From the IMG/VR virus record IMGVR_UViG_2734482549_000013: a DNA stretch of 45,259 nucleotides. One strand, written 5' to 3'. Position 1 is the first letter of the stretch, and the number at the start of each line of letters is the position of its first letter. Below are positions 8,920-31,251 of the stretch, one piece after another. The notes below the pieces were generated by a model. It made no database searches, was not told where the DNA came from, and worked only from the letters and a program-made list of their open reading frames with translations. This DNA comes from a virus (Duplodnaviria > Heunggongvirae > Uroviricota > Caudoviricetes). The translations under genes and the position numbers were made by a program.

Positions 8920-8931
8920 GCAAAAGTTTCC

Positions 8932-9789: not shown

Positions 9790-9795
9790 CTGACC

Positions 9796-10542
9796 ATGAA
9801 AAATATTGCGACAGGCGACGTTCTTGAACGTATCCGCAGACTGGCCCCGTCACATGTAACCGCGCCATTCAAGACGGTAGCGGAGTGGCGCGAGTGGCAA
9901 CTTTCCGAAGGCCAGAAACGTTGTGAGGAGATCAACCGTCAGAATCGTCAGTTGCGGGTGGAAAAAATTCTGAATCGCTCTGGCATCCAGCCATTGCACC
10001 GCAAATGCTCGTTTTCGAATTACCAGGTGCAGAACGAAGCGCAGCGATACGCGTTGAGTCAGGCGAAATCCATCGCTGATGAACTGATGACCGGGTGTAC
10101 AAATTTTGCGTTCAGCGGAAAACCTGGTACCGGGAAGAACCACTTAGCGGCAGCTATCGGGAATCGCCTGCTGAAAGACGGTCAGACAGTGATTGTGGTT
10201 ACCGTGGCTGATGTTATGAGTGCCCTGCACGCCAGCTATGACGATGGGCAGTCAGGCGAAAAATTTTTGCGGGAACTATGCGAAGTGGATCTGCTGGTTC
10301 TTGATGAAATTGGCATTCAGCGCGAGACGAAAAACGAGCAGGTGGTGCTGCACCAGATTGTTGATCGCCGGACAGCGTCGATGCGCAGCGTGGGGATGCT
10401 GACAAACCTGAACTATGAGGCCATGAAAACATTGCTCGGCGAGCGGATTATGGATCGCATGACCATGAACGGCGGGCGATGGGTGAATTTTAACTGGGAG
10501 AGCTGGCGTCCGAATGTCGTCCAGCCAGGAATTGAGAAGTAA
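9796..10542 (+). CDS. ydaV: DnaC/IstB-like AAA+ helicase loader, 248 aa
   Basis: Walker [11 protein letters not shown] and Walker [10 protein letters not shown] read directly from the ORF. Confidence 0.85.
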
Positions 10543-10564
10543 TTTTTACCGGGAGGAAATTTTT

Positions 10565-11326
10565 ATGGAGACTGTTTTTGACGCACTGAAAGCAATGGGA
10601 AAAGCCACATCCATAGAACTTGCTGCGCGACTTGATATCAGTCGTGAAGAAGTGCTGAACGAACTATGGGAACTGAAAAAAGCTGGTTTCGTTGATAAAA
10701 GCGCGTACACCTGGCGTGTGGCTGATAACAACGTTCAGCAGGAACAGCCAATGCAGGCAGAACTGCCGGAAGAAACCACCACGGCAACTGTAGTGAAAAT
10801 CTCAGAGTGCGATTTAACCGCGACGATTGAACAACGCGGACCACAAACGGCGGATGAACTGGCTACGCTGTTCGGTACAACATCCCGCAAAGTTGCTTCA
10901 ACGCTGGCAATGGCAATCAGCAAAGGACGCCTGATTCGCGTAAACCAGAACAGTAAATTTCGTTACTGCATGCCGGGCGATAATTTACCAGCAGAGCCGA
11001 AAGCTGCATCGGTAGCGGAAACTGATGGTAAAGCCTTTCCTCAGCCAGCCGGTGTTGCGTTACCAGTACAGGAAGCGGCAACACAGGAAGATATTAAAAC
11101 AGAAACTGTGGCGGACATTGTGCAGTCGCTGCCATCGTTTACTGAAACGCAAGCGGATGACCTAGTTTTACCATCGCTGCATATGGCAAACCGCGAACTG
11201 CGTCGGGCGAAAAATCATGTCCAGAAGTGGGAGCGAGTCTGCGCCGCGCTGCGGGAGCTGAACAAGCACCGGGATATTGTCCGACAGATTGTCGATTCCT
11301 CCAGTCGTATTGTGTCGGAAAAGTGA
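10565..11326 (+). CDS. ydaW: Full-length YdaW-like protein, 253 aa from [10 protein letters not shown]
   Basis: GGGAGGAAA Shine-Dalgarno upstream of ATG at 10565; N-terminal region recalled as YdaW-like (recalled as truncated in the K-12 Rac remnant). Confidence 0.6.
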
Positions 11327-11341
11327 TTGCCGGAGGCGCTT

Positions 11342-11758
11342 ATGGCAAAAGTTTTTACACAGGAAGAGCGTGAAAAAATTAAGGAGCAGGTTGTTGAGTT
11401 GGTACGCCAGAGTGGGCGCGAGACGTTAAGGCAACTGGAGGCCAAGACAGGTGCGACAAGATATCTGATGAGCATTCTTGCCAGAGAGTTGGTTGCCAGT
11501 GGCGATGTATACAACTCTGGCTATGGGTTATTCCCGTCTGAACAGGCTCGTAAGGATTGGAAAAACGCCCGCAAAAAACTATCCAGGGCAAAGGTGAAAA
11601 AAACGGTTGTGGTTGATCCTGACCTTATCTGGTCATTACCAGACGGAGAAATACGCCGCTATGACAGGCGTCAGAACATAATCTGTCGCGAGTGCCGGAA
11701 GAGTGAAGTTATGAAACGTGTACTGGCATTTTATCAAGGAAATCTTCGGTATTTATAG
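11342..11758 (+). CDS. Hypothetical basic phage protein, 138 aa from MAKVFTQEER
   Basis: ORF with GGAGG Shine-Dalgarno at 11333-11337; no family recognised by eye. Confidence 0.5.
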   Translation: MAKVFTQEEREKIKEQVVELVRQSGRETLRQLEAKTGATRYLMSILARELVASGDVYNSGYGLFPSEQARKDWKNARKKLSRAKVKKTVVVDPDLIWSLPDGEIRRYDRRQNIICRECRKSEVMKRVLAFYQGNLRYL

Positions 11759-11896
11759 ACGTTACTAGATCAAAGAGCATTAGTTCATATGTAAATTGAC
11801 ATTTTTCTGGCACAGGGGAGAGCTAGCGTGGTTGTCCGCTTTGTGCCAATAGCGGACATTGCTGGCTCATGGTATGTTAGTTTAAGGAGGCAGGTT

Positions 11897-12919
11897 ATGC
11901 CCTGTATTTCGCTGTGGTATAATAGTTGCGCAATTGATACAAGGGAGCGTTACATCGTGAAAATTGTTTTCGAGGTTAATGGAAAGAAAGTTCCACTAAA
12001 ATCTTTAAAATACATAAGCAAAAAAGATCAACTCGAAGTAATGAAAAACTGGTTCTTTGAAAACTTTGAAGATCCGGCAAATGCTTGTCCGTATGAAAGT
12101 AGAGAAGGTGGCTATGCTTACATATATGGCGGGCCGTATGATGCGAGCGAAGAACTACAATCCATCTTCGGTCAATATGTTAAATCTGAGTATATTGAGG
12201 AATTAGTAGATGAATTACAAACACAATGTTTTGACTGGTCTGGAAACTCAAATAATATAGATGATTGGTACGATGATGATATCTACGACGCTGTAACGTC
12301 TTCCGGTAATCCGTATTTAAAATTCATTGATAATATCGATAAAATAAAAAAACTTGCAAAAGATAAAACTGAACAACAGCAAAAAAACCACTTGCTTAGT
12401 TTGCTCTACACGAATGTTATTACAGCTTTGGAAACGCTTTATGTTGAGCTATTCATTAATTCTATAGAGAAAGATGATGTCTACATAGCCAATTGTATAG
12501 AAAAAGGTAAGACTGAATTTAAAGTAAGCAAAGATATTGCTGCGTTGCCTTTCAAGGGTGAACCCATCGAGAAAATTAGGGGAGAGCTAATCAGGTCAAT
12601 CAAGGAACACTTGATCAGTGCAAGCTGGCATAGCACTAAAAAGGTAATCGACCGCTATGAAGCTACATTCGATATAAAAGTACAAAAAGACTGTCCGATA
12701 GAAGCTATTGAATTGGCAACCCTCAATCGAAATCACTTAGTGCATCGTGGTGGAAAGGATAAAGAAGGGAACCTCGTAGTGATTACAGACCAGGATCTTG
12801 AAACGCTGATTGAAAATGCATCGAACCTGGCAATTATGCTCTACAACAGTTTAAATGTAGCAACGAATAAAACCACCATTTTGCAACCAGATGACAAACC
12901 GTTCATTCATGAATTTTAA
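11897..12919 (+). CDS. Cargo gene A, 340 aa, AT-rich; C-terminal HEPN-like RNxxxH motif (LNRNHLVHRGG); candidate defense/abortive-infection effector
   Basis: AAGGAGG Shine-Dalgarno at 11884-11890, ATG at 11897; codon usage visibly AT-rich compared with flanking phage genes; motif at 12728-12745. Confidence 0.7.
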   Translation: MPCISLWYNSCAIDTRERYIVKIVFEVNGKKVPLKSLKYISKKDQLEVMKNWFFENFEDPANACPYESREGGYAYIYGGPYDASEELQSIFGQYVKSEYIEELVDELQTQCFDWSGNSNNIDDWYDDDIYDAVTSSGNPYLKFIDNIDKIKKLAKDKTEQQQKNHLLSLLYTNVITALETLYVELFINSIEKDDVYIANCIEKGKTEFKVSKDIAALPFKGEPIEKIRGELIRSIKEHLISASWHSTKKVIDRYEATFDIKVQKDCPIEAIELATLNRNHLVHRGGKDKEGNLVVITDQDLETLIENASNLAIMLYNSLNVATNKTTILQPDDKPFIHEF

Positions 12920-12934
12920 TAGCGCAGGTCATAC

Positions 12935-13936
12935 ATGGATATTCGCACACGAAAGACAAAATTTTTAGAGTCGTTAGATTCAACTGAAGTGATACGCAAA
13001 GCAGTAAGTCTCGCTATAGATTGCATTATTGATAATCATAATAGTAATGAAGATACCCCCTTAGTTATTACCAGCTATGATGATCTCTGTAGAATCCAGG
13101 TGCTAAATTATGTACAGGAGTTTTGCGAAGCTGCATTCCCTGATATGGATGAATATTACTTTAGTCCTAACATACTTCGCATCAACGGCAAGACTAGTGA
13201 AGAAGCTTGTATTAACTTAATTAAACTCTTAAGAAGTACAAAAGGCATGCTATTCTGGTCCGATGCCCCATCGTGGTTCGCTAGCCTCCCCGACGGATTA
13301 TTCCATGTTGTTAACATTGATCAAAAAATCGTTACTCGCGGCCTTAATAAGAAAAACTCTAAGCCGACAATAATCAATAAAGATTACAGTGTAGATACAC
13401 TACTATCAGAGCTATTTTTGAATGGCGCACACATGGAGCAACCCAACGTACACAACGTTTCTGAGGGAAACATGAAGTTCTATGATGAATGCCATGCTGG
13501 ATTAATCAGACCAATACCCGCTCCAATAGGCGCGTCATACGATGAAGAGATCACAATTAATTCTCCAGATTGGCAAAAGCTCGCGTGTGTAGCTTTACGC
13601 CGCTATCAGTCGAAGGAATGTCATGACGGAATGCAATGGGATACAACCGATCATGGTTGGACTGATGTAATCGCGTATCCATTCGTCGAAGAAATACAAT
13701 CAATGGATAATAGTGGTTATCGACAATGTTTAGTTGGGCTGGTCACAATAAACAATTCAAATGCAAATTCTCCGTACCTATCTACCGTTTGGATACATCC
13801 ATTTTATCGCAGGAGAGGGTTATTAAGTAAGTTATGGCCAAAATTACAAGAGTTATATGGAAGTAACTTCGAAATTGAGCGACCTAATGAAAATATGAAA
13901 GCATTTCTGAAAAGTGCGAAACACGCAGATTACTAA
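12935..13936 (+). CDS. Cargo gene B, 333 aa, AT-rich; C-terminal GNAT-like acetyltransferase motif (VWIHPFYRRRGLLSKL)
   Basis: Starts 15 nt after gene A stop (operon-like); motif A-like V-x-P-x-Y-R-x-x-G at about 13786-13826. Confidence 0.7.
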   Translation: MDIRTRKTKFLESLDSTEVIRKAVSLAIDCIIDNHNSNEDTPLVITSYDDLCRIQVLNYVQEFCEAAFPDMDEYYFSPNILRINGKTSEEACINLIKLLRSTKGMLFWSDAPSWFASLPDGLFHVVNIDQKIVTRGLNKKNSKPTIINKDYSVDTLLSELFLNGAHMEQPNVHNVSEGNMKFYDECHAGLIRPIPAPIGASYDEEITINSPDWQKLACVALRRYQSKECHDGMQWDTTDHGWTDVIAYPFVEEIQSMDNSGYRQCLVGLVTINNSNANSPYLSTVWIHPFYRRRGLLSKLWPKLQELYGSNFEIERPNENMKAFLKSAKHADY

Positions 13937-14113
13937 TTTATGAATCAGTCTGTGGAGTTAGGGTTGGTGTGAACAAGTAGGGTAAGAGCCTCAACGTGAT
14001 GCTATGCCGACCTGCTCCCTGAGAATTCACACAGAAGGCTGCTAGCAATGTCTGCAGATCGCTCAAAGCGGACTAAAATGTTGGCTTGTTTCTGACTTAG
14101 AGCATTTAAGGAA

Positions 14114-14338
14114 GTGCTGGTGGTGACTGGTTGTTGTGTTCCATTTCTACAGAATAAAATCACAGAAACTATACCCAATAGTTGTATTGAATCACTGACG
14201 AGACAGCCTCATATTTATCAGGACTGGTGTGCGTCTAATACAGGGGGTTGTCGTGCTGGTTCTCAAATGTGCGCTGGCTATTGCGGCTGTAATGGCAATT
14301 TATTGTCTTGCTGTTGTTCTTATGGAGCGGCTTTCTGA
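14114..14338 (+). CDS. Possible small Cys-rich peptide (11 Cys in 74 aa; GTG start); may be non-coding
   Basis: Track ORF; CRAGSQMCAGYCGCNGNLLSCCCSYG; weak start context. Confidence 0.2.
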   Translation: MLVVTGCCVPFLQNKITETIPNSCIESLTRQPHIYQDWCASNTGGCRAGSQMCAGYCGCNGNLLSCCCSYGAAF

Positions 14339-14497
14339 TTGATTACATACTGGCTAGAAAAAAGGTGTTACCTTGGTTTATCTTTGTCCGGCAAGGTGCG
14401 CTCATTAATCTTAAGTAAATTTATTGCTCAAGTATTCAGATTACTTCTTATGGTTGAAGTCTCCTGTCAATGTAGAACCAATATATTTACAAAAATG

Positions 14498-14545
14498 AGA
14501 CCCGTCGGGGATAGCCCTGCCGGGTCTGACTGTTAAAGCATTTTT
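14498..14545. terminator. Hairpin AGACCCG...CGGGTCT with flanking T/A runs between the cargo genes and the convergent yeaR-like gene
   Basis: Inverted repeat 14498-14504 / 14521-14527 read directly; T-run on the minus strand just beyond the stem. Confidence 0.45.
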
Positions 14546-14556
14546 AATATGATCAT

Positions 14557-14895
14557 CTATTTTTTGGTGCTATAGACTTTTTCGCCCGAAAAGTCTGGAG
14601 CGACCCAAAAGTTAATATTAAACTGAGCATCATCGCTTAGTTCAACACGGTGCCAGTATTGTGGTGGGCTTGTTGCAAAAGCGCCAGCATTAATGACTAC
14701 TTTTATCTCCGGTTCAGTAGCATTCTCATCAGTAAAACCATAATATGTTACAGTGCCTTCCATTACGCACAACTGCCCAAAAACACCTGCTGCTGTATTA
14801 TGATGTGTTAATAACGCTGAAGGTACGTTCTCTTTTGTGAAGAACGGAGTTGAGCGTTTGATTACCCAATCTTTAGGAATTCTCTTGTGTGTCAT
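14557..14895 (-). CDS. YeaR-like DUF1971 protein, 112 aa from MTHKRIPKDW
   Basis: Conserved pattern RSTPFF ... VMEG.V.Y.G..DE...EP ... AG.FA..PP..WH ... DD..FNI.F.VAP matches recalled E. coli YeaR. Confidence 0.65.
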   Translation of the reverse strand: MTHKRIPKDWVIKRSTPFFTKENVPSALLTHHNTAAGVFGQLCVMEGTVTYYGFTDENATEPEIKVVINAGAFATSPPQYWHRVELSDDAQFNINFWVAPDFSGEKVYSTKK

Positions 14896-15708
14896 AACCA
14901 CCTCCTCCAAAACATGCATTAAAAATGCATCTTTTGGAGGGTTATGTCAAGCTGTTATGAAACACATAATTGATATGTTGATTAGAGGAGAAGATAGAAT
15001 AAATATGGTTGTTTTTCGTATAACTATTTGTTTTACTTTTAGTTTATGCATTCTGTGTGTTAGGAATAAGTTATTAAAGTTTAATCAAAAAATCTCGATG
15101 TAGTCCACATAGATTACTGTTACTGAACCTTATTGTGTGTATTAGTTGTGTTCTGAAATTTCAGCTTAATTATTTATGATGTATTTTTTAACGATAAATA
15201 TTTTCCCAGGATACCTTTACTGTGTATATAAATAAATTATATACGCATAAATAATGTAAAGGCGTCCTTTTAGATATATCTTATCAAATGTTAATGACTT
15301 GAGTGGGAAATATGATTCCAGCAACTTATCATGTGGCTACTTTATAAAAATAATGCCCATATAAAACAACAAGCGAAAAGGATTACGGATAAAAAAGGAG
15401 CGAGATGTGCGAACTTGTTATTTTCCATGTTTAACCACCTTAAATAATTGATGATGACGGGATGATTGCATCTGTAATGCTTTTATTGAAATGTTATGAT
15501 AAAAAAGAACTTTTGCATAACATTAAAATGTAATTTATCTAATCGTTTTTAATAATAAGTGTCGTATTTCTATCCTTGTACCAGCTATTTGATATGTAGT
15601 GTTTGTTCATGCTATGTGGGGCTTTACACCATAGCCAGTTTATTTATACTTTATTCGTCAGCCTGAACAACTGGCATCTGCTGCGCTGCGCCATCGAGAG
15701 ATTGAGAA

Positions 15709-16308
15709 ATGGCGCATATACAACTGGTCAAACAAACCTCTTCTGGTTTACTTCTCCCGGCGACGCCGGAGAGTTGCGATTTTCTGCATCAAATCAAAAT
15801 AGGTGAGTGGATACACGCAGACTTTAAGCGTGTGCGTAACTACGCATTCCACAAGCGTTTTTTCAAACTCCTGCAACTGGGATTCGATTACTGGACTCCG
15901 GTCGGTGGGGCGATCACGCCTCGCGAACGAGAACTGCTGTCTGGTTTCGTTGATTACCTGTGCGAATCAGTTGGTCGGGAACACACGCCAGCCCTGAGTG
16001 ATGCCGCAGAGCAATACCTTAACACCGTTGCGACTCGTAGAACCCGGGATACGGCGTTGCTAAAGTCGTTTGAGGCTTTCCGCGAGTGGGTAACCATTCA
16101 GGCCGGATTTTACACCGAGCATATTTATCCGGACGGTAGCCGTGGGCGTCGGGCAAAATCCATCGCTTTTGCGAATATGGACGAAGTCGAGTTTCAGCAG
16201 GTTTATAAATCTGTACTGAATGTGCTGTGGAACTGGATTCTGTTCCGTAAATTCTCCTCTCAGGAGGAAGTTGAAAATGTGGCCGCACAACTACTGGAGT
16301 TTGCGTAA
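15709..16308 (+). CDS. nin-region phage protein, 199 aa (DUF1367-like by recollection)
   Basis: ORF immediately upstream of and overlapping the ybcO-like gene (ATGA overlap at 16305-16310). Confidence 0.5.
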   Translation: MAHIQLVKQTSSGLLLPATPESCDFLHQIKIGEWIHADFKRVRNYAFHKRFFKLLQLGFDYWTPVGGAITPRERELLSGFVDYLCESVGREHTPALSDAAEQYLNTVATRRTRDTALLKSFEAFREWVTIQAGFYTEHIYPDGSRGRRAKSIAFANMDEVEFQQVYKSVLNVLWNWILFRKFSSQEEVENVAAQLLEFA

Positions 16309-16598
16309 TGGTGAATTTACGTAAAGCGGCTAAAGGCCAGATGTGCCAGATCAGAATCCCTGGCTACTGCAATCACAATCCCGAAACCTCTGTGCTGGCG
16401 CATTACAGGCTGGCGGGGACGTGCGGAACAGCGACAAAACCACATGATATGCAGGCGGCGATAGCCTGTAGCTCATGCCACGATCTAATCGACGGGCGGG
16501 TAAAAACCAGCGATTACACCAAAGAAGAATTGCGCCTGATGCATGCTGAAGGGGTTTTTCGCACACAAGAAATCTGGAGAAAGAAAGGTCATTTATGA
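16308..16598 (+). CDS. YbcO-like (DUF1364) Cys-rich putative zinc-binding nuclease, 96 aa
   Basis: Length and Cys pattern (CQIRIPGYCN ... CSSCHDLID) resemble recalled DLP12 YbcO. Confidence 0.65.
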   Translation: MVNLRKAAKGQMCQIRIPGYCNHNPETSVLAHYRLAGTCGTATKPHDMQAAIACSSCHDLIDGRVKTSDYTKEELRLMHAEGVFRTQEIWRKKGHL

Positions 16599-17137
16599 TT
16601 TACCCAACGAATACAGGAAAAAGCGGAGAACACCTTCGCCTCACCACGCTGGAAAGTGTCTGGATTCAGGGAAAACTACGTATGTGGGGGCGCTGGTCGT
16701 ATATTGGCGGTGGCAGGTCAGGGAATATGTTCAATCAGTTGTTGGCATCCAAAAAACTGACGAAAACAGCCATTAATGAAGCCCTGCGCAGAATGAAAAA
16801 AGCGGGAATAGAGAAAGCTGAGCTGGAAGCGTTTTTGCGAGAGATGATCAACGGCAAGCAAAAGAGCTGGCTGGCGCATTGTACTGATGCAGAGGCGTTA
16901 TGTATTGATCGAGTCATAAGTGAGGTGCTGGCAGAGCATCCAGGATTGATTTGCATTCTCCGGCAACGCTATGAAGGGCGGGGGATGACTAAGCGCAAAA
17001 TGGCTGAATTGCTAAATGATGCACACCCAGAGTGGTGTTTTAGCACATGCGAAAAACGGATTGCTAATTGGTTAGCTGTTGCTGAGTATGCCCTATATAT
17101 TCCCATGCGTGAATCATTTGCTGAGAAAATGGCTTGA
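16595..17137 (+). CDS. Candidate late-gene antiterminator Q, 180 aa
   Basis: Last gene of the nin-like block, directly upstream of a strong intrinsic terminator and the lysis cassette; Cys pairs (HCTDAEALC, CFSTC); no sequence-level family match verified. Confidence 0.45.
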   Translation: MIYPTNTGKSGEHLRLTTLESVWIQGKLRMWGRWSYIGGGRSGNMFNQLLASKKLTKTAINEALRRMKKAGIEKAELEAFLREMINGKQKSWLAHCTDAEALCIDRVISEVLAEHPGLICILRQRYEGRGMTKRKMAELLNDAHPEWCFSTCEKRIANWLAVAEYALYIPMRESFAEKMA

Positions 17138-17216
17138 TTTCTTACGTATAAACTGCTTCAATTTTGCTATGCTTCGCAAAGCTGTATCGCGAGGCGGATT
17201 GCAGACATGGACATCG

Positions 17217-17244
17217 TAAAAAAACCGCTTAATGCGGTTTTTTT
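17217..17244 (+). terminator. Intrinsic terminator (tR'-like): AAAAAAACCGC-TTAAT-GCGGTTTTTTT
   Basis: Perfect stem with A-tract and T-tract read directly, about 80 nt downstream of the Q-like gene. Confidence 0.7.
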
Positions 17245-17563
17245 ACGTCAGGAAAGCAGGGGAGAATGCTGCTAGTTGGGCAACTGGTCTTTCTGCTCCA
17301 AATTATAACAGAGACCAGTTATAGTTTCGGTGCTGTGTTTTTTTTACAATATTGTGATAACACATTGCTGGCGGGAGTTTTGATATTTCTTGGCAGGGGC
17401 TGATGATGCGTTATCCTGATGTCGTCAACTCATATAAAATGAGATGAGAGATCATTGCAGGGTGGTTTGTAATTCGCTGTTTAGCGGGACAATATGTTGT
17501 CTGATACAAGACACCCGACGCCTCAGATTACTATAATAAAGACGAAGCATCCTTTGTATTGAC

Positions 17564-17590
17564 CAACCGCCTGTTTAGGCGGTTCTTTTT
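17564..17590 (+). terminator. Second intrinsic terminator-like hairpin: AACCGCC-TGTTTA-GGCGGTT followed by CTTTTTG
   Basis: 7-bp perfect stem plus T-run read directly. Confidence 0.5.
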
Positions 17591-18181
17591 GGGCTGGTTT
17601 ATTGTATGCCAAATGATTATTAAAAAGGTTGTGTTAATAACAAGATCCGAAATAATATGCCTGCATATTTTTATCTTGCTTATATTCTGCATATTGTGCA
17701 TAGCAGGCTCATCCCTGCAATCAAAACTGTATGATGAGTATTTTTTGTTTTCCTTTTTTCCAGTCATCTGATGATGACCTGCTTCTTTTTAATCCGGATC
17801 GACATCAGTTTTTTAAGATAATTCCTGCGAGTTATATGCATAAATGCCACAAACTCCGCATTTTATGTGGTTGGGAGTTGCCGGGCGCGCAGTGAGTTTG
17901 CTAAGAAAACTCCTGCATGGTGAATCCCCCTGTGCGGTGGGGTGATACCATTAACCTTTTCTGTCGCCGACAGGTATCACGAACATTTTGTTCACCGGGA
18001 GGCACCCGGCACCATGCACTTCAATAGATTCTCTCCACATTATGGATATTCTTTCAGAATATCCCACGCAGACTTTGTGTAAATGTTAACAAATGTGCGT
18101 TTTATTTGATCTGATTCGCTGTTTGAGCGTCCAAAACAACGGTATATATAATCCTTTACTATATGACATATGTGAGGAAAA

Positions 18182-18610
18182 ATGGGTTTTCGTAGCGCAT
18201 CAATTCTTACGTTGATTATTAGTGGGATTATTATCGGGTGCACTGATGCTGTATCGACAAATTATCATGACCGTACATCATATTACTCCGATAAAGCAAT
18301 AGAGACACAGTATGTGAGTTCATCTGAACGTACTTCTGATGTTAGTGAGGATATCCGTCTGTATGCCCATCAAATCAAGAGCGCCATCGAAAAACAGTTC
18401 GGGGATGCGAGTAAGTATTCAGGAAAAGAGTGTACACTGAGAATGCATATGGCCCCGAATGGCCTTCTACTGGAGGTTAAAAGAGAAAGTGGAGACCTCG
18501 ATTTATGTCGTGAAGCGATGAATGCGATAAAGAATGCTGATATACCTGCCCCCCCTTCGCCGGAAGTATATAAAGTATTTCAAAATGGGGTGCTGGATTT
18601 TAAACCCTGA
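18182..18610 (+). CDS. Lipoprotein with TolA C-terminal domain III-like domain, 142 aa
   Basis: Lipobox IIGC; C-terminal YAHQIKSAIEKQFGDASKYSGKECTLRMHMAPNGLLLEVKRESGDLDLCREAMNAIKNADIPAPPSPEVYKVFQNGVLDFKP aligns by eye with the recalled E. coli TolA C-terminus (... YAGQIKSAIESKF ... CTLRIKLAPDG ... VYEVFKNAPLDFKP). Confidence 0.7.
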   Translation: MGFRSASILTLIISGIIIGCTDAVSTNYHDRTSYYSDKAIETQYVSSSERTSDVSEDIRLYAHQIKSAIEKQFGDASKYSGKECTLRMHMAPNGLLLEVKRESGDLDLCREAMNAIKNADIPAPPSPEVYKVFQNGVLDFKP

Positions 18611-18760
18611 TATTTATTGTTTTGTAATAAACGGTTTCGGCTTAGGTTTGTTCTGACACAGCTACGGCACTGAGCTAAATTTAGCGGATAGTCAGCTCTG
18701 AGCCAGTGGCGGACGTAACAACTACTATTGCTGAGATTTTAATGGATTGAGGAGCAAGAA

Positions 18761-19156
18761 GTGGGATTAAAGAAAATCGTTATGTTGACTTTTTGGGTCG
18801 GTTTTGTTGCGGGATGCACACCTTTACACCCTTCAGATTGCCACAAAACTACTGCTACAGGTAGTTGCAGTTCAGGACGCTGGGATGATCAGGATGAATG
18901 GGGGGCGCAAGCGCGGGGAATCAGAGCTGCAATTAATGCCAAACTTGATGAGCCGCATAACTGGAAAGGGAAAAAATGCAGGTTGCATATGGAATTCTCT
19001 CAGGATGGCACGGCGTTAAAAATATCTACCAGTAACGGTGATAAAGCCTATTGCGAAGCGATAAAGTCCGCAGCTCATAAAGCCAAATTTCCGGCCTTCA
19101 ACAATCCGGAAGTCTACAGAGATTTTCAGAAATCTGGCTTTGACATGCGAGGTTAG
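18761..19156 (+). CDS. Second, more divergent TolA-III-like lipoprotein, 131 aa, GTG start
   Basis: Lipobox VAGC; shared pattern K.C.L.M ... G..L ... C ... A..KA.FPA...PEVY..FQ with the upstream gene; GAGGAG Shine-Dalgarno. Confidence 0.65.
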   Translation: MGLKKIVMLTFWVGFVAGCTPLHPSDCHKTTATGSCSSGRWDDQDEWGAQARGIRAAINAKLDEPHNWKGKKCRLHMEFSQDGTALKISTSNGDKAYCEAIKSAAHKAKFPAFNNPEVYRDFQKSGFDMRG

Positions 19157-19407
19157 CTCTTCAATTACTATATCTCATTCATAGCAAACTGACAGATTTG
19201 ATGATGTTCTATATACGAAACCTGTGATGTCAAGTCTGAGCTAATACAAATAAACATAATATCAGAGAAATACATTTTATTAGCTCGCTACGGCGAGCTT
19301 TTTATATTGCATCGTCTCCAGCATATATATCAATTAAGGCTCTGATTGATGTGTCTGAAAGCCTACACATAATAACTATGCCATCCGTTCCGTGCGGAGG
19401 TGAGGCT

Positions 19408-19623
19408 ATGAAATCCATGGACAAAATTTCAACAGGCATTGCCTACGGCACCTCCGCAGGCAGTGCTGGCTACTGGTTTTTACAGTTGCTCGATAGAGTA
19501 ACTCCGTCACAGTGGGCTGCAATCGGTGTGCTGGGTAGTCTGGTATTTGGCCTGCTGACGTACCTGACAAACCTTTATTTCAAGATTAAAGAAGATAAGC
19601 GCAAGGCTGCGAGAGGTGAATAA
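19408..19623 (+). CDS. Class II holin / pinholin, phage-21 S-like, 71 aa with dual-start MKSM motif
   Basis: Sequence [26 protein letters not shown] ... [36 protein letters not shown] recalled as S21-like; two transmembrane segments; GGAGGTGAGG Shine-Dalgarno. Confidence 0.8.
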
Positions 19624-20123
19624 TGCCTCCATCATTACGAAAAGTCGTTGCTGCTGCTATTGGTGGCGGAGCAATTGCTATAGCATCAGTGTTAATCACT
19701 GGCCCAAGTGGTAACGATGGTCTGGAAGGTGTCAGCTACATACCATACAAAGATATTGTTGGTGTATGGACTGTATGTCACGGGCATACAGGAAAAGACA
19801 TCATGCTCGGTAAAACGTATACCAAAGCAGAATGCAAAACACTCTTGAATAAAGACCTTGCCACTGTCGCCAGACAAATTAACCCGTACATCAAAGTCGA
19901 TATACCGGAAACAACGCGCGGCGCTCTTTACTCATTCGTTTACAACGTGGGTGCTGGCAATTTCAGAACATCGACGCTTCTTCGCAAAATAAACCAGGGC
20001 GATATCAAAGGCGCATGTGATCAGCTACGTCGCTGGACATATGCTGGCGGTAAGCAATGGAAAGGTCTCATGACTCGTCGTNGTGAGATTGAGCGTGAAA
20101 TCTGTTTGTGGGGTCAGCAATGA
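19623..20123 (+). CDS. SAR endolysin (lysozyme with N-terminal signal-anchor-release domain), 166 aa; contains one ambiguous base (n at 20082)
   Basis: Gly/Ala-rich weakly hydrophobic N-terminus ([20 protein letters not shown]) followed by lysozyme-like domain; start overlaps holin stop (TAATG). Confidence 0.8.
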
Positions 20124-20584
20124 ACAGAGTAACCGCGATTATCTCCGCTCTGGTTATCTGCATCATCGTCTGCCTGTCATGGGCTGTTAATCATTACCGT
20201 GATAACGCCATTACCTACAAAGCCCAGCGCGACAAAAATGCCAGAGAACTGAAGCTGGCGAACGCGGCAATTACTGACATGCAGATGCGTCAGCGTGATG
20301 TTAATGCACTCGATGCTAAATACACGAAGGAGTTAGCTGATGCGAAAGCTGAAAATGATGCTCTGCGTGATGATGTTGCCGCTGGTCGTCGTCGGTTGCA
20401 CATCAAAGCAGTCTGTCAGTCAGTGCGTGAAGCCACCACCGCCTCCGGCGTGGATAATGCAGCCTCCCCCCGACTGGCAGACACCGCTGAACGGGATTAT
20501 TTCACCCTCCGGGAACGACTGGTAATGATGCAGGCCCAACTTGAAGGTGCTCAGCAATACATAACCGAGCAGTGTTTAAAGTAA
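20120..20584 (+). CDS. rzpR: Rz i-spanin, 154 aa from [10 protein letters not shown]
   Basis: N-terminal transmembrane segment, coiled-coil region; start overlaps endolysin stop (ATGA). Confidence 0.8.
20340..20525 (+). CDS. rzoR: Rz1 o-spanin lipoprotein embedded in the +1 frame of Rz, 61 aa
   Basis: Lipobox VVGC, proline-rich ([19 protein letters not shown]); entirely inside Rz. Confidence 0.8.
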
Positions 20585-20721
20585 AATCTTAACTACAATA
20601 TGATTCATTTTGATGATTGTTTCATAAGGAACAGTGAAGTAAGATCTAAGAGGAGTTAAATTTTATACAGTATAATCATAATATTGCAGCAAGGTGGTTA
20701 TAATTGAAAGAATATTTAGAT

Positions 20722-22179
20722 ATGAATACATCTCATGTAAGAGTTGTTACTCATATGTGTGGGTTCCTGGTTTGGCTCTATAGTCTTTCAATGTTGCCAC
20801 CAATGGTTGTAGCATTGTTTTATAAAGAAAAAAGCCTGTTCGTTTTCTTTATAACTTTCGTTATATTTTTTTGCATTGGTGGCGGAGCGTGGTATACAAC
20901 TAAGAAATCTGGCATTCAATTACGTACCCGTGATGGGTTTATTATAATTGTAATGTTTTGGATTTTGTTTTCTGTTATTAGTGCATTCCCTTTATGGATT
21001 GACTCAGAACTTAATTTAACGTTCATTGATGCTCTGTTTGAAGGGGTTTCTGGAATAACAACAACAGGAGCAACTGTAATTGATGATGTTAGTTCATTAC
21101 CTCGGGCATATTTGTACTATCGGTCACAGTTAAATTTTATAGGTGGTTTAGGAGTTATTGTTCTGGCGGTTGCAGTATTGCCATTATTGGGTATTGGTGG
21201 TGCAAAGCTTTATCAGTCAGAAATGCCGGGGCCATTTAAGGATGACAAACTCACTCCCCGCCTGGCCGATACGTCACGGACACTGTGGATAACTTATTCT
21301 TTATTAGGTATTGCTTGTATTGTCTGTTATAGACTTGCAGGAATGCCTTTGTTTGATGCTATTTGTCACGGGATTTCCACAGTTTCGCTTGGTGGTTTCT
21401 CAACTCATAGCGAGAGTATCGGATATTTTAATAACTATTTGGTTGAGCTGGTGGCTGGTTCTTTTTCCCTGCTATCGGCTTTCAACTTCACTCTTTGGTA
21501 TATTGTTATTAGCAGAAAAACGATAAAACCTTTAATCAGAGATATTGAACTTCGTTTCTTTCTGTTAATAGCCTTAGGGGTGATCATTGTTACCTCTTTC
21601 CAGGTCTGGCATATAGGTATGTATGACTTGCATGGAAGTTTTATTCATTCGTTTTTTCTTGCCAGCTCCATGCTCACTGATAATGGTTTAGCTACGCAGG
21701 ATTATGCAAACTGGCCCACGCACACGATAGTGTTTTTGCTGTTGTCAAGTTTCTTTGGGGGATGTATAGGTTCAACCTGTGGTGGAATTAAGTCACTTCG
21801 ATTTCTTATACTTTTCAAACAAAGCAAACACGAGATAAATCAGCTTTCTCATCCCAGAGCGTTGTTGAGTGTAAATGTAGGAGGGAAGATAGTTACAGAT
21901 CGTGTAATGAGGTCTGTATGGAGTTTCTTTTTTCTTTATACTCTCTTCACGGTGTTTTTTATACTGGTGTTAAATGGTATGGGATATGATTTTCTTACAT
22001 CATTTGCAACAGTGGCTGCATGTATTAATAATATGGGATTAGGTTTTGGGGCTACTGCATCGTCATTCGGAGTGCTTAATGACATTGCAAAATATTTAAT
22101 GTGCATAGCTATGATTCTTGGTCGCCTTGAAATTTATCCTGTTATTATATTGTTTTCAGGTTTTTTTTGGCGCTCCTAA
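20722..22179 (+). CDS. trkG: TrkG potassium uptake protein, 485 aa from MNTSHVRVVT; AT-rich cargo gene
   Basis: Multi-pass membrane protein; N-terminus recalled as TrkG; visibly AT-rich relative to phage structural genes. Confidence 0.9.
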   Translation: MNTSHVRVVTHMCGFLVWLYSLSMLPPMVVALFYKEKSLFVFFITFVIFFCIGGGAWYTTKKSGIQLRTRDGFIIIVMFWILFSVISAFPLWIDSELNLTFIDALFEGVSGITTTGATVIDDVSSLPRAYLYYRSQLNFIGGLGVIVLAVAVLPLLGIGGAKLYQSEMPGPFKDDKLTPRLADTSRTLWITYSLLGIACIVCYRLAGMPLFDAICHGISTVSLGGFSTHSESIGYFNNYLVELVAGSFSLLSAFNFTLWYIVISRKTIKPLIRDIELRFFLLIALGVIIVTSFQVWHIGMYDLHGSFIHSFFLASSMLTDNGLATQDYANWPTHTIVFLLLSSFFGGCIGSTCGGIKSLRFLILFKQSKHEINQLSHPRALLSVNVGGKIVTDRVMRSVWSFFFLYTLFTVFFILVLNGMGYDFLTSFATVAACINNMGLGFGATASSFGVLNDIAKYLMCIAMILGRLEIYPVIILFSGFFWRS

Positions 22180-22316
22180 TATATGGCTGATTTATAATTG
22201 TGAGTTTAATATTATGTTGACTCACTCATTGATCCAATACCTAACTTTACCAGCAACACCTCCGCCCCCAGTAGCACTGGCTGCTGGGGTGCGTTTTATT
22301 CATAAAGCAAGGCTGT

Positions 22317-23105
22317 ATGAGCGAGAAATTAAAGATAGTCTATCGCCCATTACAAGAATTGTCACCGTATGCGCACAACGCCAGGACGCACAGTACTGAG
22401 CAGGTGGCACAACTGGTAGAAAGTATTAAGCAATTCGGCTGGACTAATCCGGTGCTGATTGACGAAAAGGGCGAAATTATTGCGGGTCACGGTCGTGTTA
22501 TGGCGGCTGAAATGCTCAAAATGGATTCTGTTCCGGTCATTGTTCTGTCTGGCCTGACGGATGAGCAGAAAAAGGCGTACCGCCTGGCAGATAATCGCCT
22601 GCCGATGAATGCTGGCTGGGATGAAGATCTGTTGCGGATGGAGCTGTCGGACCTAATCAATGCTGATTTTGATGTCTCCCTGACAGGCTTCATCCCGGCA
22701 GAAATTGATGAACTGTTGACGGATGTTTTGCCCGGTACAGGAAATGAGGAGGAGCCGTATACGACGAAAATTGATACGCCTGTTTATGAGCCGTCAGGCG
22801 GTAAACCGGATATCAGTGAACTGTACGACGATACGAAAACTCAGGAGCTGATCAGCCGGATACGTTCGGCGTCCCTTGATCCTGATATTGAGAAATTCCT
22901 CCTGTGTGCAGCAGAACGTCACACGGTGTTTAATTTCAGCAGAATTGCGGACTATTACGCTCATGCCCCCGCTGAAATTCAGTGCCTTTTCGAGGAGTCG
23001 GCGCTGGTGATCATTGATTATCAGCAGGCTATTGAAAATGGATTTGTCCGAATGACGCAGCGCATGGTGGAGATCATGCATGGCGGGGAGGAGGAATATG
23101 CGTGA
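22317..23105 (+). CDS. ParB-like nuclease domain protein, 262 aa
   Basis: ParB/Srx-like motif IIAGHGRVMAA; located at the start of the packaging module. Confidence 0.65.
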   Translation: MSEKLKIVYRPLQELSPYAHNARTHSTEQVAQLVESIKQFGWTNPVLIDEKGEIIAGHGRVMAAEMLKMDSVPVIVLSGLTDEQKKAYRLADNRLPMNAGWDEDLLRMELSDLINADFDVSLTGFIPAEIDELLTDVLPGTGNEEEPYTTKIDTPVYEPSGGKPDISELYDDTKTQELISRIRSASLDPDIEKFLLCAAERHTVFNFSRIADYYAHAPAEIQCLFEESALVIIDYQQAIENGFVRMTQRMVEIMHGGEEEYA

Positions 23106-24030
23106 TGATTTTTGCGCCTTTATTCTGACTCACGGGCGACCGGACAAAGTTCTGACTTACCGGACGTTGCGTCGTGCTGGCTATACCGGGAAAATTTTTA
23201 TCGTTGTTGATGATGAAGATAAGACACGGCATCAGTACATGGCTGAATTTGGTGAACAGGTGCTGGTATTTTCCAAAGCCGATATTGCTAGTCGTTTTGA
23301 CGAAGCCGATAATTTTAGTGACCGCCGCTCAATTTTTTACGCCCGTAATGCCTGTTTCGACCAGGCAAAACTGGTCGGGTGTAAATACTTCATTCAGCTC
23401 GATGATGATTATCACGAGTTCCAGTTTCGGGTGGATCGCAACTATGACCAGGCCTATTTCCCGATAAGGAAACTGGATGAGATCCTTTCTGAAATGCTTG
23501 CGTACTACGAATCAATACCTGCTCTTTCCATCGCTATGTCGCAGGGCGGGGATTTTCTTGGTGACAATGGCGGCCATGCTTCGTGGGTGAAACGCAAGGC
23601 AATGAACAGCTTTATCTGTTCGGTTGATCGACCGTTCTCATTCATGGGGCGCATTAACGAGGATGTGAATACGTACACGAATCTCGGTCGCTGTGGTGAA
23701 TTGTTTATGACGATCGGTGCTGTCCAGTTAGGGCAGAAACAGACGCAGAAAAACAGCGGCGGAATGACCGAGCTGTATCTGGATTCCGGAACCTACGTTA
23801 AAAGTTTTTACTCCGTCATGTATGCGCCGTCGTGCGTAAAAATCTCACTTATGGGTGCCAGTCATAAACGCATTCACCATCAGGTCACCTGGAACAACGC
23901 TGCAGTAAAAATCCTTCACGAAAAATACAGGAAGAAGACACCCTGCATATCAATGGGGGTGACAAATGATTCCGTATTCGAAAGTCGAGTCTCTGGCAGC
24001 GTGCCGGATGACTGCACAACAAATCGCTGA
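23098..24030 (+). CDS. Hypothetical protein, 310 aa, possible GT-A-like nucleotide-sugar transferase fold (DDD motif in FIQLDDDYHEF)
   Basis: GGAGGAGGAA Shine-Dalgarno upstream of ATG at 23098; N-terminal beta-alpha pattern AFILTHGRPDKV ... IFIVVDDED; fold assignment is inference only. Confidence 0.5.
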   Translation: MRDDFCAFILTHGRPDKVLTYRTLRRAGYTGKIFIVVDDEDKTRHQYMAEFGEQVLVFSKADIASRFDEADNFSDRRSIFYARNACFDQAKLVGCKYFIQLDDDYHEFQFRVDRNYDQAYFPIRKLDEILSEMLAYYESIPALSIAMSQGGDFLGDNGGHASWVKRKAMNSFICSVDRPFSFMGRINEDVNTYTNLGRCGELFMTIGAVQLGQKQTQKNSGGMTELYLDSGTYVKSFYSVMYAPSCVKISLMGASHKRIHHQVTWNNAAVKILHEKYRKKTPCISMGVTNDSVFESRVSGSVPDDCTTNR

Positions 24031-24217
24031 CGTTCTGGATGTTGATCTGAACCGACTGAAAGAAAATCGGGAAGCAATGACAGATTTTTATGCGGCCATC
24101 CGTAAGGGCAGAGCGAAAGGTGAAGCCGAGTTACGAGCGGCATTGTTTAAGCTTGCCAGAAAAGGGGATGCCTTTGCTCTGCGCGAACTACTCAGGGTGG
24201 ATAAAAATCAGGACTAA
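24008..24217 (+). CDS. Possible small helical protein (start uncertain, overlaps upstream gene)
   Basis: Track ORF 23966..24217; ends 4 nt before the terminase small subunit candidate. Confidence 0.3.
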   Translation: MTAQQIADVLDVDLNRLKENREAMTDFYAAIRKGRAKGEAELRAALFKLARKGDAFALRELLRVDKNQD

Positions 24218-24220
24218 CTG

Positions 24221-25315
24221 ATGAGCAGACCGGACTGGGGGGCGTTGCAGCAGGAGTATATTGCTGAATACACCCGCTCCGGTATATCTCCGGTGGCATG
24301 GTGTGAAGCAAGGGGACTGAATTACGCAACAGCCCGTCGTTACATCAAAAAAACTCCGAAAAATGCGCAGACAGAAATGTGCAAAACTGCGCAAAAAAGT
24401 GCGCAGAAAAAATCTGCGCAGACTGCACAAAAGCGGAACGAAAAATCTCAGGAAAAAAAGCCAGTATTCGATGCGGGCCTGAATGAGGGCGACGCGGAGG
24501 AATTTTCGTTCTGTCCCGATGAATTCGGCATTTCTGACCAGCAGGCTAAGTTTGCGATGCTTGTTGCTCAGGGTAAAAAGCCGACAGAGGCGTACCGACT
24601 AGCCGGTTATGAGGGGCAAGGTGCGACAGCTAACAGCAACGCCAGTCGTATGCTTAGAAATGCCAGGGTTTTTCGCGCTATCAGCTACTTCCGCAATCAG
24701 TACCAGAAACGCTATACCGCAGACCTGGATTTACTAGTGAGTCAGTTGATGGCTATTGTCCTGGCCGACCCCAATCAGCTTGCACAATTTCGCCGTGTTA
24801 ACTGCCGTTATTGCTGGGGCGAGAATCATCTCTACCAGTGGCGCGATATAGCAGAATTCGACAAGGCAGCGGCGCAGGCTTCCAGAGATGGCAAACCCGA
24901 ACCGGAATATGGAGGCCTCGGCTTTGTTGATAACGCCATACCCAATCCGGACTGCCCGAAGTGCTGCGGTGAGGGAACGGGACAGCTTTATATGGCTGAT
25001 ACCACTCTGCTTGATGGGGATGCGCGGCAATTATATGCAGGGGCAAAATTCGGAAAATTCGGCGTTGAGATCCTGCTGGAGGATAAGGCTGCCGCCCGGC
25101 GTGAATTGTTGCGTTTGTTTTCTGCTGGCGGGGCTTTATGTGCAGATAAGCGGCTACGGGAACTGGAAATTGAACGGCGCAGAATGGAAAACCAGAAGCT
25201 GCGCAAAGAGATCGAAACGGTGGAAGATAATGAACATCCCCAGCCTGTGGCGATCAATATTAATGTGGTTGATGCCAGAGTAAGGAGTGATGAAGATGAT
25301 CTCTCCGACGCTTAA
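24221..25315 (+). CDS. Candidate terminase small subunit, 364 aa
   Basis: Position immediately upstream of and overlapping the terminase large subunit; N-terminal HTH-like region; acidic C-terminus. Confidence 0.55.
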   Translation: MSRPDWGALQQEYIAEYTRSGISPVAWCEARGLNYATARRYIKKTPKNAQTEMCKTAQKSAQKKSAQTAQKRNEKSQEKKPVFDAGLNEGDAEEFSFCPDEFGISDQQAKFAMLVAQGKKPTEAYRLAGYEGQGATANSNASRMLRNARVFRAISYFRNQYQKRYTADLDLLVSQLMAIVLADPNQLAQFRRVNCRYCWGENHLYQWRDIAEFDKAAAQASRDGKPEPEYGGLGFVDNAIPNPDCPKCCGEGTGQLYMADTTLLDGDARQLYAGAKFGKFGVEILLEDKAAARRELLRLFSAGGALCADKRLRELEIERRRMENQKLRKEIETVEDNEHPQPVAININVVDARVRSDEDDLSDA

Positions 25316-26597
25316 TGTGCCTCAGGCGCGATTTCTTTCAATGCCCCATAAATTTAAAGCCTATATTGCTGGTTTTGGCTCGGGCAAAACATGGGTTGGG
25401 TGTGGCGGCATATGCAAGGGGATTTGGGAGCATCCAGGTATAAATCAGGGATATTTTGCGCCAACGTATCCCCAAATTCGCGATATTTTTTACCCTACAG
25501 TGGAAGAAGTTGCTGCTGACTGGGGATTGAACGTAAAAATTAATGAGGGAAATAAAGAGGTTCACTTTTATTACGGACGCCAGTATCGGGGAACCACTAT
25601 CTGCAGATCGATGGAGAAGCCACAAACGATCGTCGGTTTCAAAATTGGTAATGCGTTGGTGGATGAACTGGACATTTTGCCGAAGGAAAAAGCCAGAACG
25701 GCGTGGCGCAAGATAATTGCACGTATGCGTTATAAGATTGATGGACTTCGCAACGGTATTGACGTTACAACCACGCCGGAAGGATTCAAATTTGTCTACG
25801 AGCAGTTTGTTAAAGCCGTGCGTGAAAAAACAGAGCTGGCCTCACTGTATGGTCTGGTGCAGGCATCTACTTTCGATAATGAAAAGAACCTGCCAGCAGA
25901 TTACATTCCTTCGCTTCTTGAATCATACCCTCCAGAGCTGATTAAAGCCTATCTTCGAGGACAGTTTACTAACCTGACAAGTGGTACTGTTTACCATCAG
26001 TTTGACCGGAAACTGAATAATTGCGAAGAAGTGGAGCAGCCAGGGGAGCCGATTTATATTGGGATGGATTTTAACGTTGGAAAGATGGCGGGAATCGTCC
26101 ATGTGCTGCGTTTGGGGCTTCCATGTGCGGTAACTGAAATCATCAATGCCTACGATACGCCGGATATGATCCGCATCATTAAAGAACGCTTCTGGCTGTA
26201 TGATGGGAATGATTACCGGAAAGTGAGGGAAATTTATATTTATCCAGATGCTTCCGGGGATTCCAGAAAATCAAGTAACGCAAGTACGACGGATATAGCC
26301 CAGCTTAAGCAGGCTGGTTTTAACGTTGTGGTGAACAGCTCGAACCCGCCAGTAAAAGATCGCGTTAACTCAATGAATGCAATGTTCTGCAATGCCAATG
26401 GTGAGCGTCGCTATAAAGTTAATGTGAAGCGTTGCCCGTTATATGCCGAATCTCTGGAGCAACAGGTCTGGGATGAGAAGGGGGAGCCTGATAAAAAATC
26501 TGGCAATGATCACCCGAATGATGCCGGAGGTTATTTCATCGTTAAGCAATTCCCTATTGTCAAACCGACCGGAAGAGTCACATCACTTCGGATTTAA
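25287..26597 (+). CDS. Terminase large subunit, 436 aa
   Basis: Walker A AGFGSGKTW and Walker B-like LVDELD; followed by portal gene. Confidence 0.8.
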   Translation: MMKMISPTLNVPQARFLSMPHKFKAYIAGFGSGKTWVGCGGICKGIWEHPGINQGYFAPTYPQIRDIFYPTVEEVAADWGLNVKINEGNKEVHFYYGRQYRGTTICRSMEKPQTIVGFKIGNALVDELDILPKEKARTAWRKIIARMRYKIDGLRNGIDVTTTPEGFKFVYEQFVKAVREKTELASLYGLVQASTFDNEKNLPADYIPSLLESYPPELIKAYLRGQFTNLTSGTVYHQFDRKLNNCEEVEQPGEPIYIGMDFNVGKMAGIVHVLRLGLPCAVTEIINAYDTPDMIRIIKERFWLYDGNDYRKVREIYIYPDASGDSRKSSNASTTDIAQLKQAGFNVVVNSSNPPVKDRVNSMNAMFCNANGERRYKVNVKRCPLYAESLEQQVWDEKGEPDKKSGNDHPNDAGGYFIVKQFPIVKPTGRVTSLRI

Positions 26598-26599
26598 TT

Positions 26600-31209: not shown

Positions 31210-31219
31210 ACATTCAAAC

Positions 31220-31240: not shown

Positions 31241-31251
31241 ATGGGGGGCAT

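Follow-up and report, generated by a model that had tools for sequence, protein, structure and literature searches.

Two adjacent genes of an Escherichia coli prophage encode short lipoprotein precursors that end in a copy of domain III of TolA (TolAIII). They lie in IMG/VR virus record IMGVR_UViG_2734482549_000013, whose full 45,259 nucleotides are the window analysed here and represent an un-deleted, intact Rac-family prophage. The first open reading frame (ORF1, 18182..18610, + strand) begins with ATG and specifies a precursor of 142 amino acids; the second (ORF2, 18761..19156, + strand) begins with GTG and specifies one of 131 amino acids in which the TolA domain is more divergent. Within the Tol-Pal system TolAIII is the end that transmits force, and it also serves as the shared entry point of filamentous phages (M13/fd, IF1 and, in Vibrio, CTXphi) and group A colicins. 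We tentatively favour the reading, to which we give somewhat less than an even chance, that both products are outer-membrane-tethered TolAIII competitors that intercept the ligands of TolA. The host would thereby tolerate Tol-dependent phages and colicins, and a loosened envelope would be either a by-product or an alternative aim. Both genes are already annotated as TolA-related in RefSeq, and the domain assignment is not new; for the lipoprotein-tethered, mobile-element-borne architecture, no functional description was found in the literature searched.

The domain assignment is supported by several comparisons. The Pfam profile PF06519 (TolA_C), with a gathering cut-off of 25 bits, matches ORF1 at 82.6 bits (E 2.4e-23) and ORF2 at 54.6 bits (E 1.3e-14). 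In BLASTP against K-12 TolA, ORF1 shows 60% identity over 86 residues without gaps (TolA 336-421, E 7e-31) and ORF2 34% identity over 77 residues (TolA 344-420, E 3e-10), and residues 55-142 of ORF1 also align gap-free to the PDB TolAIII chains 1s62, 3qdp and 1tol (E ~1e-27). A sequence-only reading of this DNA had described ORF1, and ORF1 alone, as matching TolAIII 'almost residue for residue'. The match is indeed significant, as that reading expected of a pairwise alignment, but the wording overstates an identity of 60%, and the limitation to ORF1 does not hold because ORF2 is a TolAIII protein as well. The two ORFs are also paralogous, as had been proposed (29% identity, E 2e-18).

The domain occupies 18332..18607 (+) in ORF1 (amino acids 51-142, ending in GVLDFKP, the beta3 strand) and 18878..19153 (+) in ORF2 (amino acids 40-131, with the C-terminal strand SGFDMRG). 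Cys84 and Cys109 of ORF1 and Cys73 and Cys98 of ORF2 align with C363 and C388 of TolA, a pair that forms invariant alignment columns; the disulfide bond itself is a prediction. Structure prediction, which the sequence-only reading had suggested as a check, returns the TolAIII fold for both proteins. The AlphaFold models of the two domains both reach a pLDDT (predicted local distance difference test) of ~90, and the ORF2 model superposes on the TolAIII structure 3qdp with a root-mean-square deviation of 1.1 A and a target-normalised TM-score (template-modelling score) of 0.92, also matching the g3p-TolA complexes 1tol and 2x9a. In the ORF1 model the fold elements follow in TolAIII order: helix, two strands, helices and C-terminal edge strand. 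Both proteins thus share with E. coli TolAIII (~325-421; PDB 1tol, 1s62, 3qdp, 3qdr and 2x9a) the alpha/beta fold, the disulfide cysteines and the C-terminal edge strand, and ORF1 additionally keeps most of the colicin A (ColA) box and of helix alpha2.

The remainder of TolA is missing from both proteins. Matches to full-length TolA profiles cover only the last 94-98 model positions in ORF1 and the last 79-81 in ORF2. Both fall below the NF007065 cut-off of 213 bits (ORF1 107.8, ORF2 53.7), and the TIGR02794 threshold is exceeded by ORF1 only (75.6 vs 59.45), through the C-terminal domain alone. TolA domain I, the transmembrane segment that couples to TolQ and TolR, is replaced by cleavable lipoprotein signal peptides, and the long helical domain II is missing from proteins of 142 and 131 amino acids whose linkers of 20-35 residues are modelled as disordered. 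Comparison with the authentic ybgC-tolQRA-tolB-pal-cpoB operon confirms that neither ORF belongs to it. E. coli TolA has an inner-membrane anchor, a link to TolQR and the proton-motive force and a place in the tol-pal operon, whereas ORF1 and ORF2 are predicted to be lipid-anchored, have no motor and reside on mobile elements.

The lipoprotein signal peptides named in the sequence-only reading are found in both ORFs. ORF1 begins with MGFRSASILTLIISGIIIG followed by Cys20 (signal peptide at 18182..18241, +, lipobox IIGC, read from the sequence), and ORF2 with MGLKKIVMLTFWVGFVAG followed by Cys19 (18761..18817, +, lipobox VAGC). Both match a lipoprotein signal pattern of the PROSITE PS51257 type, with a positively charged n-region, a hydrophobic h-region and a lipobox whose Cys falls within the first 35 residues. 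Thr occupies position +2 in each, and the Asp+2 inner-membrane retention signal is absent. In E. coli, a residue other than Asp at +2 leads to Lol transfer to the outer membrane; because this residue is Thr, the mature proteins are predicted to be outer-membrane lipoproteins. The linker that follows in ORF1 (18242..18331, +, amino acids 21-50) is rich in Ser, Thr and Tyr and is read as disordered (pLDDT <50), while that of ORF2 (18818..18877, +, amino acids 20-39; TPLHPSDCHKTTATGSCSSG) has two additional conserved cysteines and low model confidence. The ORF2 linker is strongly kept across genera as CxPLHPSxCHKTTAxGSCSSGRWDDQDEWG.

The starts of both genes are well marked. ORF1 has GAGGA as ribosome-binding site ahead of its ATG, and ORF2 has GAGGAG 6 bases before its GTG. 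The GTG start is supported by homologues of ORF2 in other genera, in which the aligned codon is sometimes GTG and sometimes ATG and follows a ribosome-binding site that is conserved. RefSeq instead begins ORF2 at a downstream internal ATG, removing the n-region of the signal peptide (RefSeq copy L002 6683-7057), and labels ORF1 a tolA pseudogene, 'incomplete; missing N-terminus' (L002 6251-6511). Both annotations look wrong, as artefacts of naming by a full-length TolA model.

The RefSeq label raises the question of whether the pair is a non-functional remnant, ORF1 being a truncated tolA pseudogene from the host chromosome and ORF2 a decaying duplicate. Frameshifted ORF1 products in some assemblies and the NF007065 score below cut-off would agree with the flag, yet we consider this highly improbable. 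ORF1 is equipped with a ribosome-binding site and start codon of its own and with a full lipoprotein signal peptide, which tolA lacks, and it is intact in 76 of 80 IMG/VR prophage loci. The frameshifts fall at a C7 homopolymer inside the gene (18549..18555, +) and are seen in many database proteins from short-read assemblies, which end in ...VINGFGLGLF; the tract is stable and the ORF intact in 76 of 77 IMG/VR copies. Phase variation at this tract was considered and rejected on the same count, the frameshifts being probably assembly or sequencing errors.

Substitution patterns likewise argue against decay. ORF1 and a 66%-identical variant of the same architecture differ with a ratio of nonsynonymous to synonymous substitutions (dN/dS) of 0.33. 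Relatives of ORF2 show synonymous divergence (dS) of 0.5-1.05, nonsynonymous divergence (dN) of 0.06-0.13 and dN/dS of 0.08-0.17, or about 0.1 across genera, and the ORF2 family is under strong purifying selection. ORF1 and tolA share 59% nucleotide identity and 41% identity at third positions, with a proportion of synonymous differences (pS) of 0.72. These saturated synonymous sites indicate an old lineage and no fresh tolA fragment, and recent capture of host tolA is rejected.

Which ligands these proteins might bind can be judged from the mapped surfaces of TolAIII. In E. coli, g3p-N1, colicin N (ColN) and TolB bind the beta3 strand (A415-K420) by backbone beta-strand addition, and D418P/K420P mutants lose beta3 binding, TolB included, with a full tol phenotype; ColA binds 375-LLDIKP-380 on the opposite face, and helix 334-349 contacts g3p (Ridley and Lakey, PMC4339652). 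At beta3, TolA has APLDFK, ORF1 GVLDFK and ORF2 SGFDMR; at the ColA box the respective sequences are LLDIKP, LLEVKR and ALKIST. Y340 is Tyr in TolA and ORF1 and Gln in ORF2, and the cysteine pair C363/C388 is present in all three. ORF1 further keeps 12 of the 16 residues of helix 334-349, Y340 included; I344 and I348, which are core residues, are unchanged in ORF2. A C-terminal strand is predicted in both models, neither of which has a proline at the equivalents of 418 and 420. These comparisons suggest that ORF1 could share the ligands of E. coli TolA and that the ligand specificity of ORF2 probably differs. The decoy proposed in the sequence-only reading is plausible in this light, being consistent with the elements retained in ORF1 (GVLDFK, LLEVKR, Y340 and the cysteines).

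We further note that the wider family keeps the TolA ligand-binding elements. When 1.84 billion representative proteins were searched with a profile, 592 relatives were found; among the best 150 of these, 77 are 110-170 amino acids long, of which 58 have a lipobox, and some others have an ordinary signal peptide. Across 51 diverse short TolAIII lipoproteins from this search, Y340 is conserved in 84% and C363/C388 in 98%, and G383-D384, P401, Y409, F412-K-N and L417-D-F419 are also among the most conserved positions. Within the ORF2 family a lipobox is present in 111 of 120 proteins, and the C-terminus KSGFDMRG is identical in 87 of the 120.

In the mechanism that we favour, processing by signal peptidase II and Lol sorting would leave the domain suspended from the outer membrane's inner leaflet, facing the periplasm on a linker of ~20-35 residues. 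There it would present its beta3 edge strand and helix surface and capture ligands by beta-strand addition, the candidates being filamentous-phage g3p N1, the TolB N-terminus and, in those group A colicins that depend on TolA (N, A, E1, K and relatives), the translocation domain. Since TolA domains I and II are absent, the copy has no means of coupling to the TolQR motor and would compete with TolA; since it would sit at the outer membrane, an incoming ligand should encounter it before TolA and be caught there unproductively. A lysogen or plasmid host would as a result be tolerant to Tol-dependent phages and bacteriocins. In ORF1 the binding surfaces of E. coli TolA are almost fully kept; those of ORF2 are remodelled and would probably serve a different ligand range.

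Several known systems resemble parts of this scheme. Colicin tolerance from exported TolAIII was reportedly observed by Levengood-Freyermuth et al. in 1993. E. coli that exports native TolAIII to the periplasm leaks periplasmic protein (PMC6195910). Such engineered periplasmic TolAIII (Levengood-Freyermuth, 1993; Wan and Baneyx, 1998; in PMC6195910) is likewise a free domain III in a tolA+ cell and acts as a dominant competitor that causes leakiness; however, those constructs are artificial, soluble and overexpressed, whereas ORF1 and ORF2 are natural, diverged, predicted to be lipid-tethered and presumably expressed at low levels. Cor (of phi80, N15 and HK022) and Llp (of T5) are also small phage lipoproteins; placed at the inner leaflet of the outer membrane, they close a route by which competing phages and colicins enter. 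They bind and plug the receptor FhuA, whereas ORF1 and ORF2 would mimic a periplasmic co-receptor and trap the ligand; in PHROGs, where the matches are phrog_5772 and weak unnamed families, and in PADLOC we found no relation of either ORF to the Cor or Llp families. Resident filamentous-phage g3p is said, in work of Boeke, Model and Zinder from 1982, to exclude filamentous phages and colicin import. That exclusion involves the same interaction between g3p-N1 and TolAIII and blocks the same two routes, filamentous-phage entry and colicin import, but is the mirror image of the present scheme: there a ligand saturates host TolA, here it is the ligand that a copy of TolA would saturate, and the protein families are unrelated.

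The distribution of the two genes bears directly on their role. Among complete E. coli records, 784 contain a 1.15-kb region with 99% identity or more, and 775 genomes hold no less than 80% of it. ORF1-type genes occur in 888-895 of 5,426 complete E. coli genomes (~16%), almost all of them chromosomal, and ORF1-type proteins are found only in Escherichia and Shigella. ORF2-type genes are present in 1,269 complete E. coli genomes (~23%), with 525 matching places on plasmids, and their proteins form 370 clusters. Across Enterobacterales ORF2-type genes stand as lone chromosomal genes, in non-phage neighbourhoods of Enterobacter, Serratia and Citrobacter and in 27 species representatives, the genera including Klebsiella, Pantoea, Buttiauxella, Lelliottia, Raoultella, Rouxiella, Leclercia, Kluyvera and Yokenella. 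In Serratia marcescens (loci L007 and L008, 6001-8736), the homologue lies directly 5' of genes for a GmrSD-family protein and a HEPN-domain protein, an arrangement that looks like a small defence islet.

On plasmids, the ORF2-type gene lies directly 3' of nikA-nikB in the IncI1/B/O and IncK2/Z conjugative plasmids of the IncI complex. The copy on pO157 is preceded by an N-terminally truncated nikB and followed by insertion sequence elements and toxB (pNIID57_1, locus L098 4875-7395; also L003), which identifies it as a captured fragment of an IncI-complex transfer region; we therefore reject the view of ORF2 as an IncF leading-region gene on pO157. The pili of IncI-complex plasmids are receptors for filamentous phage IF1. 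The g3p of IF1 uses TolA's C-terminal domain as co-receptor (PDB 2x9a, among the structure-search matches).

Given these occurrences outside phages, the function cannot be specific to phage lysis or late expression, and they favour a protective, competitor role over the outer-membrane disruption at lysis that the sequence-only reading had offered as one option. The relaxase-adjacent plasmid site, the moron-like anatomy of the prophage locus described below and the presence of two paralogues with different surfaces lead us to favour the same choice. More tentatively than for the two ORFs themselves, and at roughly one chance in three, we extend the reading to the mobile elements at large: Rac-type and Stx-type (Shiga toxin) prophages, IncI-complex plasmids, pO157 and chromosomal islets of Enterobacterales may all carry outer-membrane-tethered co-receptor decoys that trap the epitopes by which filamentous phages and group A bacteriocins bind TolA, before these reach the energised TolQRA.

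The same plasmid site and the conservation of ORF2 also suit a different role, in which the TolAIII fold serves, in ORF2 especially, as an outer-membrane-anchored adaptor for partners unlike those of TolA, such as porins, Pal, enzymes of peptidoglycan or components of pili or type IV secretion, and acts in envelope homeostasis or conjugation instead of exclusion. The ligand sites of ORF2 are unlike those of TolA, yet its C-terminus and Cys-rich linker are very conserved, and its position right after the relaxase is conserved in I-complex transfer regions. A specific regulation is also suggested by the leader. In the prophage the intergenic stretch 18611..18760 (+) ends in ~60 bases, ATTGCTGAGATTTTAATGGATTGAGGAGCAAGAA, that include the ribosome-binding site and are conserved with the leaders of homologues in other genera; across the family ~60-100 bases 5' of the gene are conserved between genera (for example ATTGCTGAGGTTTAAATGGATTGAGGGGCAAG, loci L102-L123), which is longer than a ribosome-binding site requires and suggests a regulatory leader. 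Inspection of this leader by eye found no convincing sigma-E-type promoter. We nevertheless judge such an adaptor role somewhat unlikely. The patchy, accessory distribution speaks against housekeeping, the broad family retains TolA's own binding residues, and the gene is not named among the conjugation-required genes in the part of an I-complex plasmid TraDIS (transposon-directed insertion-site sequencing) study that was consulted (PMC10286972).

Several observations weigh against the competitor reading. Of the two paralogues, ORF2 is found more widely and is better conserved, yet it differs from E. coli TolA at the very sites of ligand binding, and its own ligands may be others; nor would a simple tether account for a Cys-rich linker so strongly conserved. 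Competition for TolB should cost envelope integrity, as the leakiness of cells exporting TolAIII indicates, which is awkward with stable carriage unless expression is low. When 50,697 sequenced phage genomes were searched with ORF1 by tblastn, mEp460_ev081 was the only one with a TolAIII-like gene, and a general phage strategy is thereby rejected. Neither ORF matches the PADLOC defence models, and the scanned region holds 14 promoter-like matches against 9.4 +/- 2.9 expected, with no enrichment. As for dedicated families of lipoprotein-tethered TolAIII, none was found in NCBIfam or PADLOC; both ORFs match phrog_5772, a family of no known function, and otherwise only weak unnamed PHROGs. No functional study of prophage or plasmid TolA-like lipoproteins or of phrog_5772 was found in the full-text literature searched, outside which most subscription journals lie.

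The prophage locus has the position that the sequence-only reading had given it, between a Q-like gene and the lysis cassette. On the 5' side lie genes for DUF1367, YbcO and a DUF1133/Q-like antiterminator (15709-17137), and on the 3' side those for a P21-type pinholin, a SAR (signal-anchor-release) endolysin and Rz/Rz1, followed by trkG. A predicted sigma-70 promoter-like site (18123..18152, +; TTGAGC-N18-TATAAT, 10 of 12 matches) stands 30 bases 5' of ORF1 in a region that is identical in mEp460_ev081, and an intrinsic terminator (19282..19305, +; AGCTCGCTACGGCGAGCT then TTTTT) separates ORF2 from the holin gene. The pair would be a moron, possibly transcribed independently in lysogens from its own predicted promoter, with late-promoter read-through after induction. 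Lambdoid morons such as lambda bor and stx are also small cargo in or near the late operon and have a promoter and terminator to themselves, as predicted for the pair; Bor and Stx, however, act on the animal host and belong to different protein families, whereas ORF1 and ORF2 would act in the bacterial envelope. A remark on 'TolA' in PMC11125564 (EDL933_2012, 32-fold ciprofloxacin induction) was not used as evidence of expression, as the supplement gives this gene as a tail fibre protein.

The equivalence of this position to the stx slot, also part of the sequence-only reading, is borne out by an ORF1 variant, WP_000271631, which is 66% identical to ORF1 and lies without ORF2 in an Stx-type prophage of E. 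coli STEC1589 (locus L016 5933-6361). The order there is Q, methylase, tRNA-Ile, tRNA-Arg, ORF1 variant, nanS-p and holin, which is that of the stxAB slot. Its signal peptide differs (MYCRAVPVLVLILASLTTG followed by Cys), and copies at least 95% identical are present in ~123 complete genomes. Conservation of the promoter was considered and rejected, the upstream promoter of ORF1 not being kept in this variant.

Such a position invites the explanation that the proteins help lysis or release. As late, Q-dependent products they would titrate TolB, and possibly Pal, from TolA and switch off Tol-Pal, with a looser link between outer membrane and peptidoglycan that aids the spanin step, increases vesiculation or speeds virion release. 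Q-dependent transcripts that reach the lysis genes would have to cross both ORFs and the terminator at 19282, the stx slot of the variant is another late-expressed cargo position, and both the periplasmic leakage from exported TolAIII (PMC6195910) and the full tol phenotype of TolA D418P/K420P upon loss of TolB binding (PMC4339652) are in line with such titration. We regard this explanation as unlikely, because ORF2 relatives are held by purifying selection where no lysis genes exist (in Enterobacter, Serratia, Citrobacter and other chromosomes and the I-complex transfer region), lambdoid phages lyse well without such genes and almost none of the sequenced phages has one, and a promoter-like site and terminator of the pair's own are features of lysogenic-conversion morons.

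If the two proteins are decoys, they would represent a new exclusion principle, in which a host co-receptor is imitated instead of a receptor being masked or modified, with relevance to phage-display and phage-therapy hosts and to bacteriocin-based therapeutics. The competitor reading, if true, could help to explain why E. coli strains differ naturally in sensitivity to colicins and Ff/IF1, and it would also explain why the gene lies beside the relaxase on conjugative plasmids whose pili attract filamentous phages. TolAIII copies occur on pO157 and on IncI-complex resistance plasmids. Should the proteins instead antagonise Tol-Pal, the variant in the stx slot would make them bear on vesiculation and toxin release.

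Comparison with K-12 places the pair within the history of Rac. K-12 Rac aligns to window positions 8491-11014 and then jumps to 20140-22570, at 98-99.9% identity, and lacks the segments 11015-20139 (9.1 kb) and 22571-34127. As it aligns on either side of both segments, K-12 Rac derives by deletion from this type of prophage. Lost with the first segment were the two TolA-like genes, together with the Q-like gene, the holin and the endolysin, and the absence of ORF1 and ORF2 from K-12 probably explains the lack of experimental data on both genes. K-12, being naturally without them, offers a clean background for testing.

The pair also behaves as part of a mobile module. In 80 IMG/VR contigs, similarity to the window ends either 5' of the Q-like gene or at ~17950-18000, with the right edge after the holin or beyond; these breaks, and the same pattern in mEp460_ev081, indicate a module that moves as a unit, and it is common to phages with differing Q and endolysin modules (mEp460_ev081 and the IMG/VR loci). 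Between the Q-like gene and ORF1, where no tRNA genes were found, lie two terminators and a match to the Rfam small RNA STnc100 (RF02076; 17885-18071, +, 86.6 bits, E 4e-18). The 3' half of this match, from ~17990, coincides with the left edge of the module common to mEp460_ev081 and 34 of the 80 IMG/VR loci. A strong, bidirectional-looking terminator, AAAAAAACCGCTTAATGCGGTTTTTTT, lies at 17221-17245, 85 bases past the Q-like gene, and is a candidate for the late-promoter-proximal terminator that is the target of the antiterminator. Elsewhere in the window, a single N at 20082 interrupts the SAR-endolysin frame (X in the translation), and three long N runs (from 40925, 42288 and 43026 onward) leave a stretch of the tail-fibre end unreadable.

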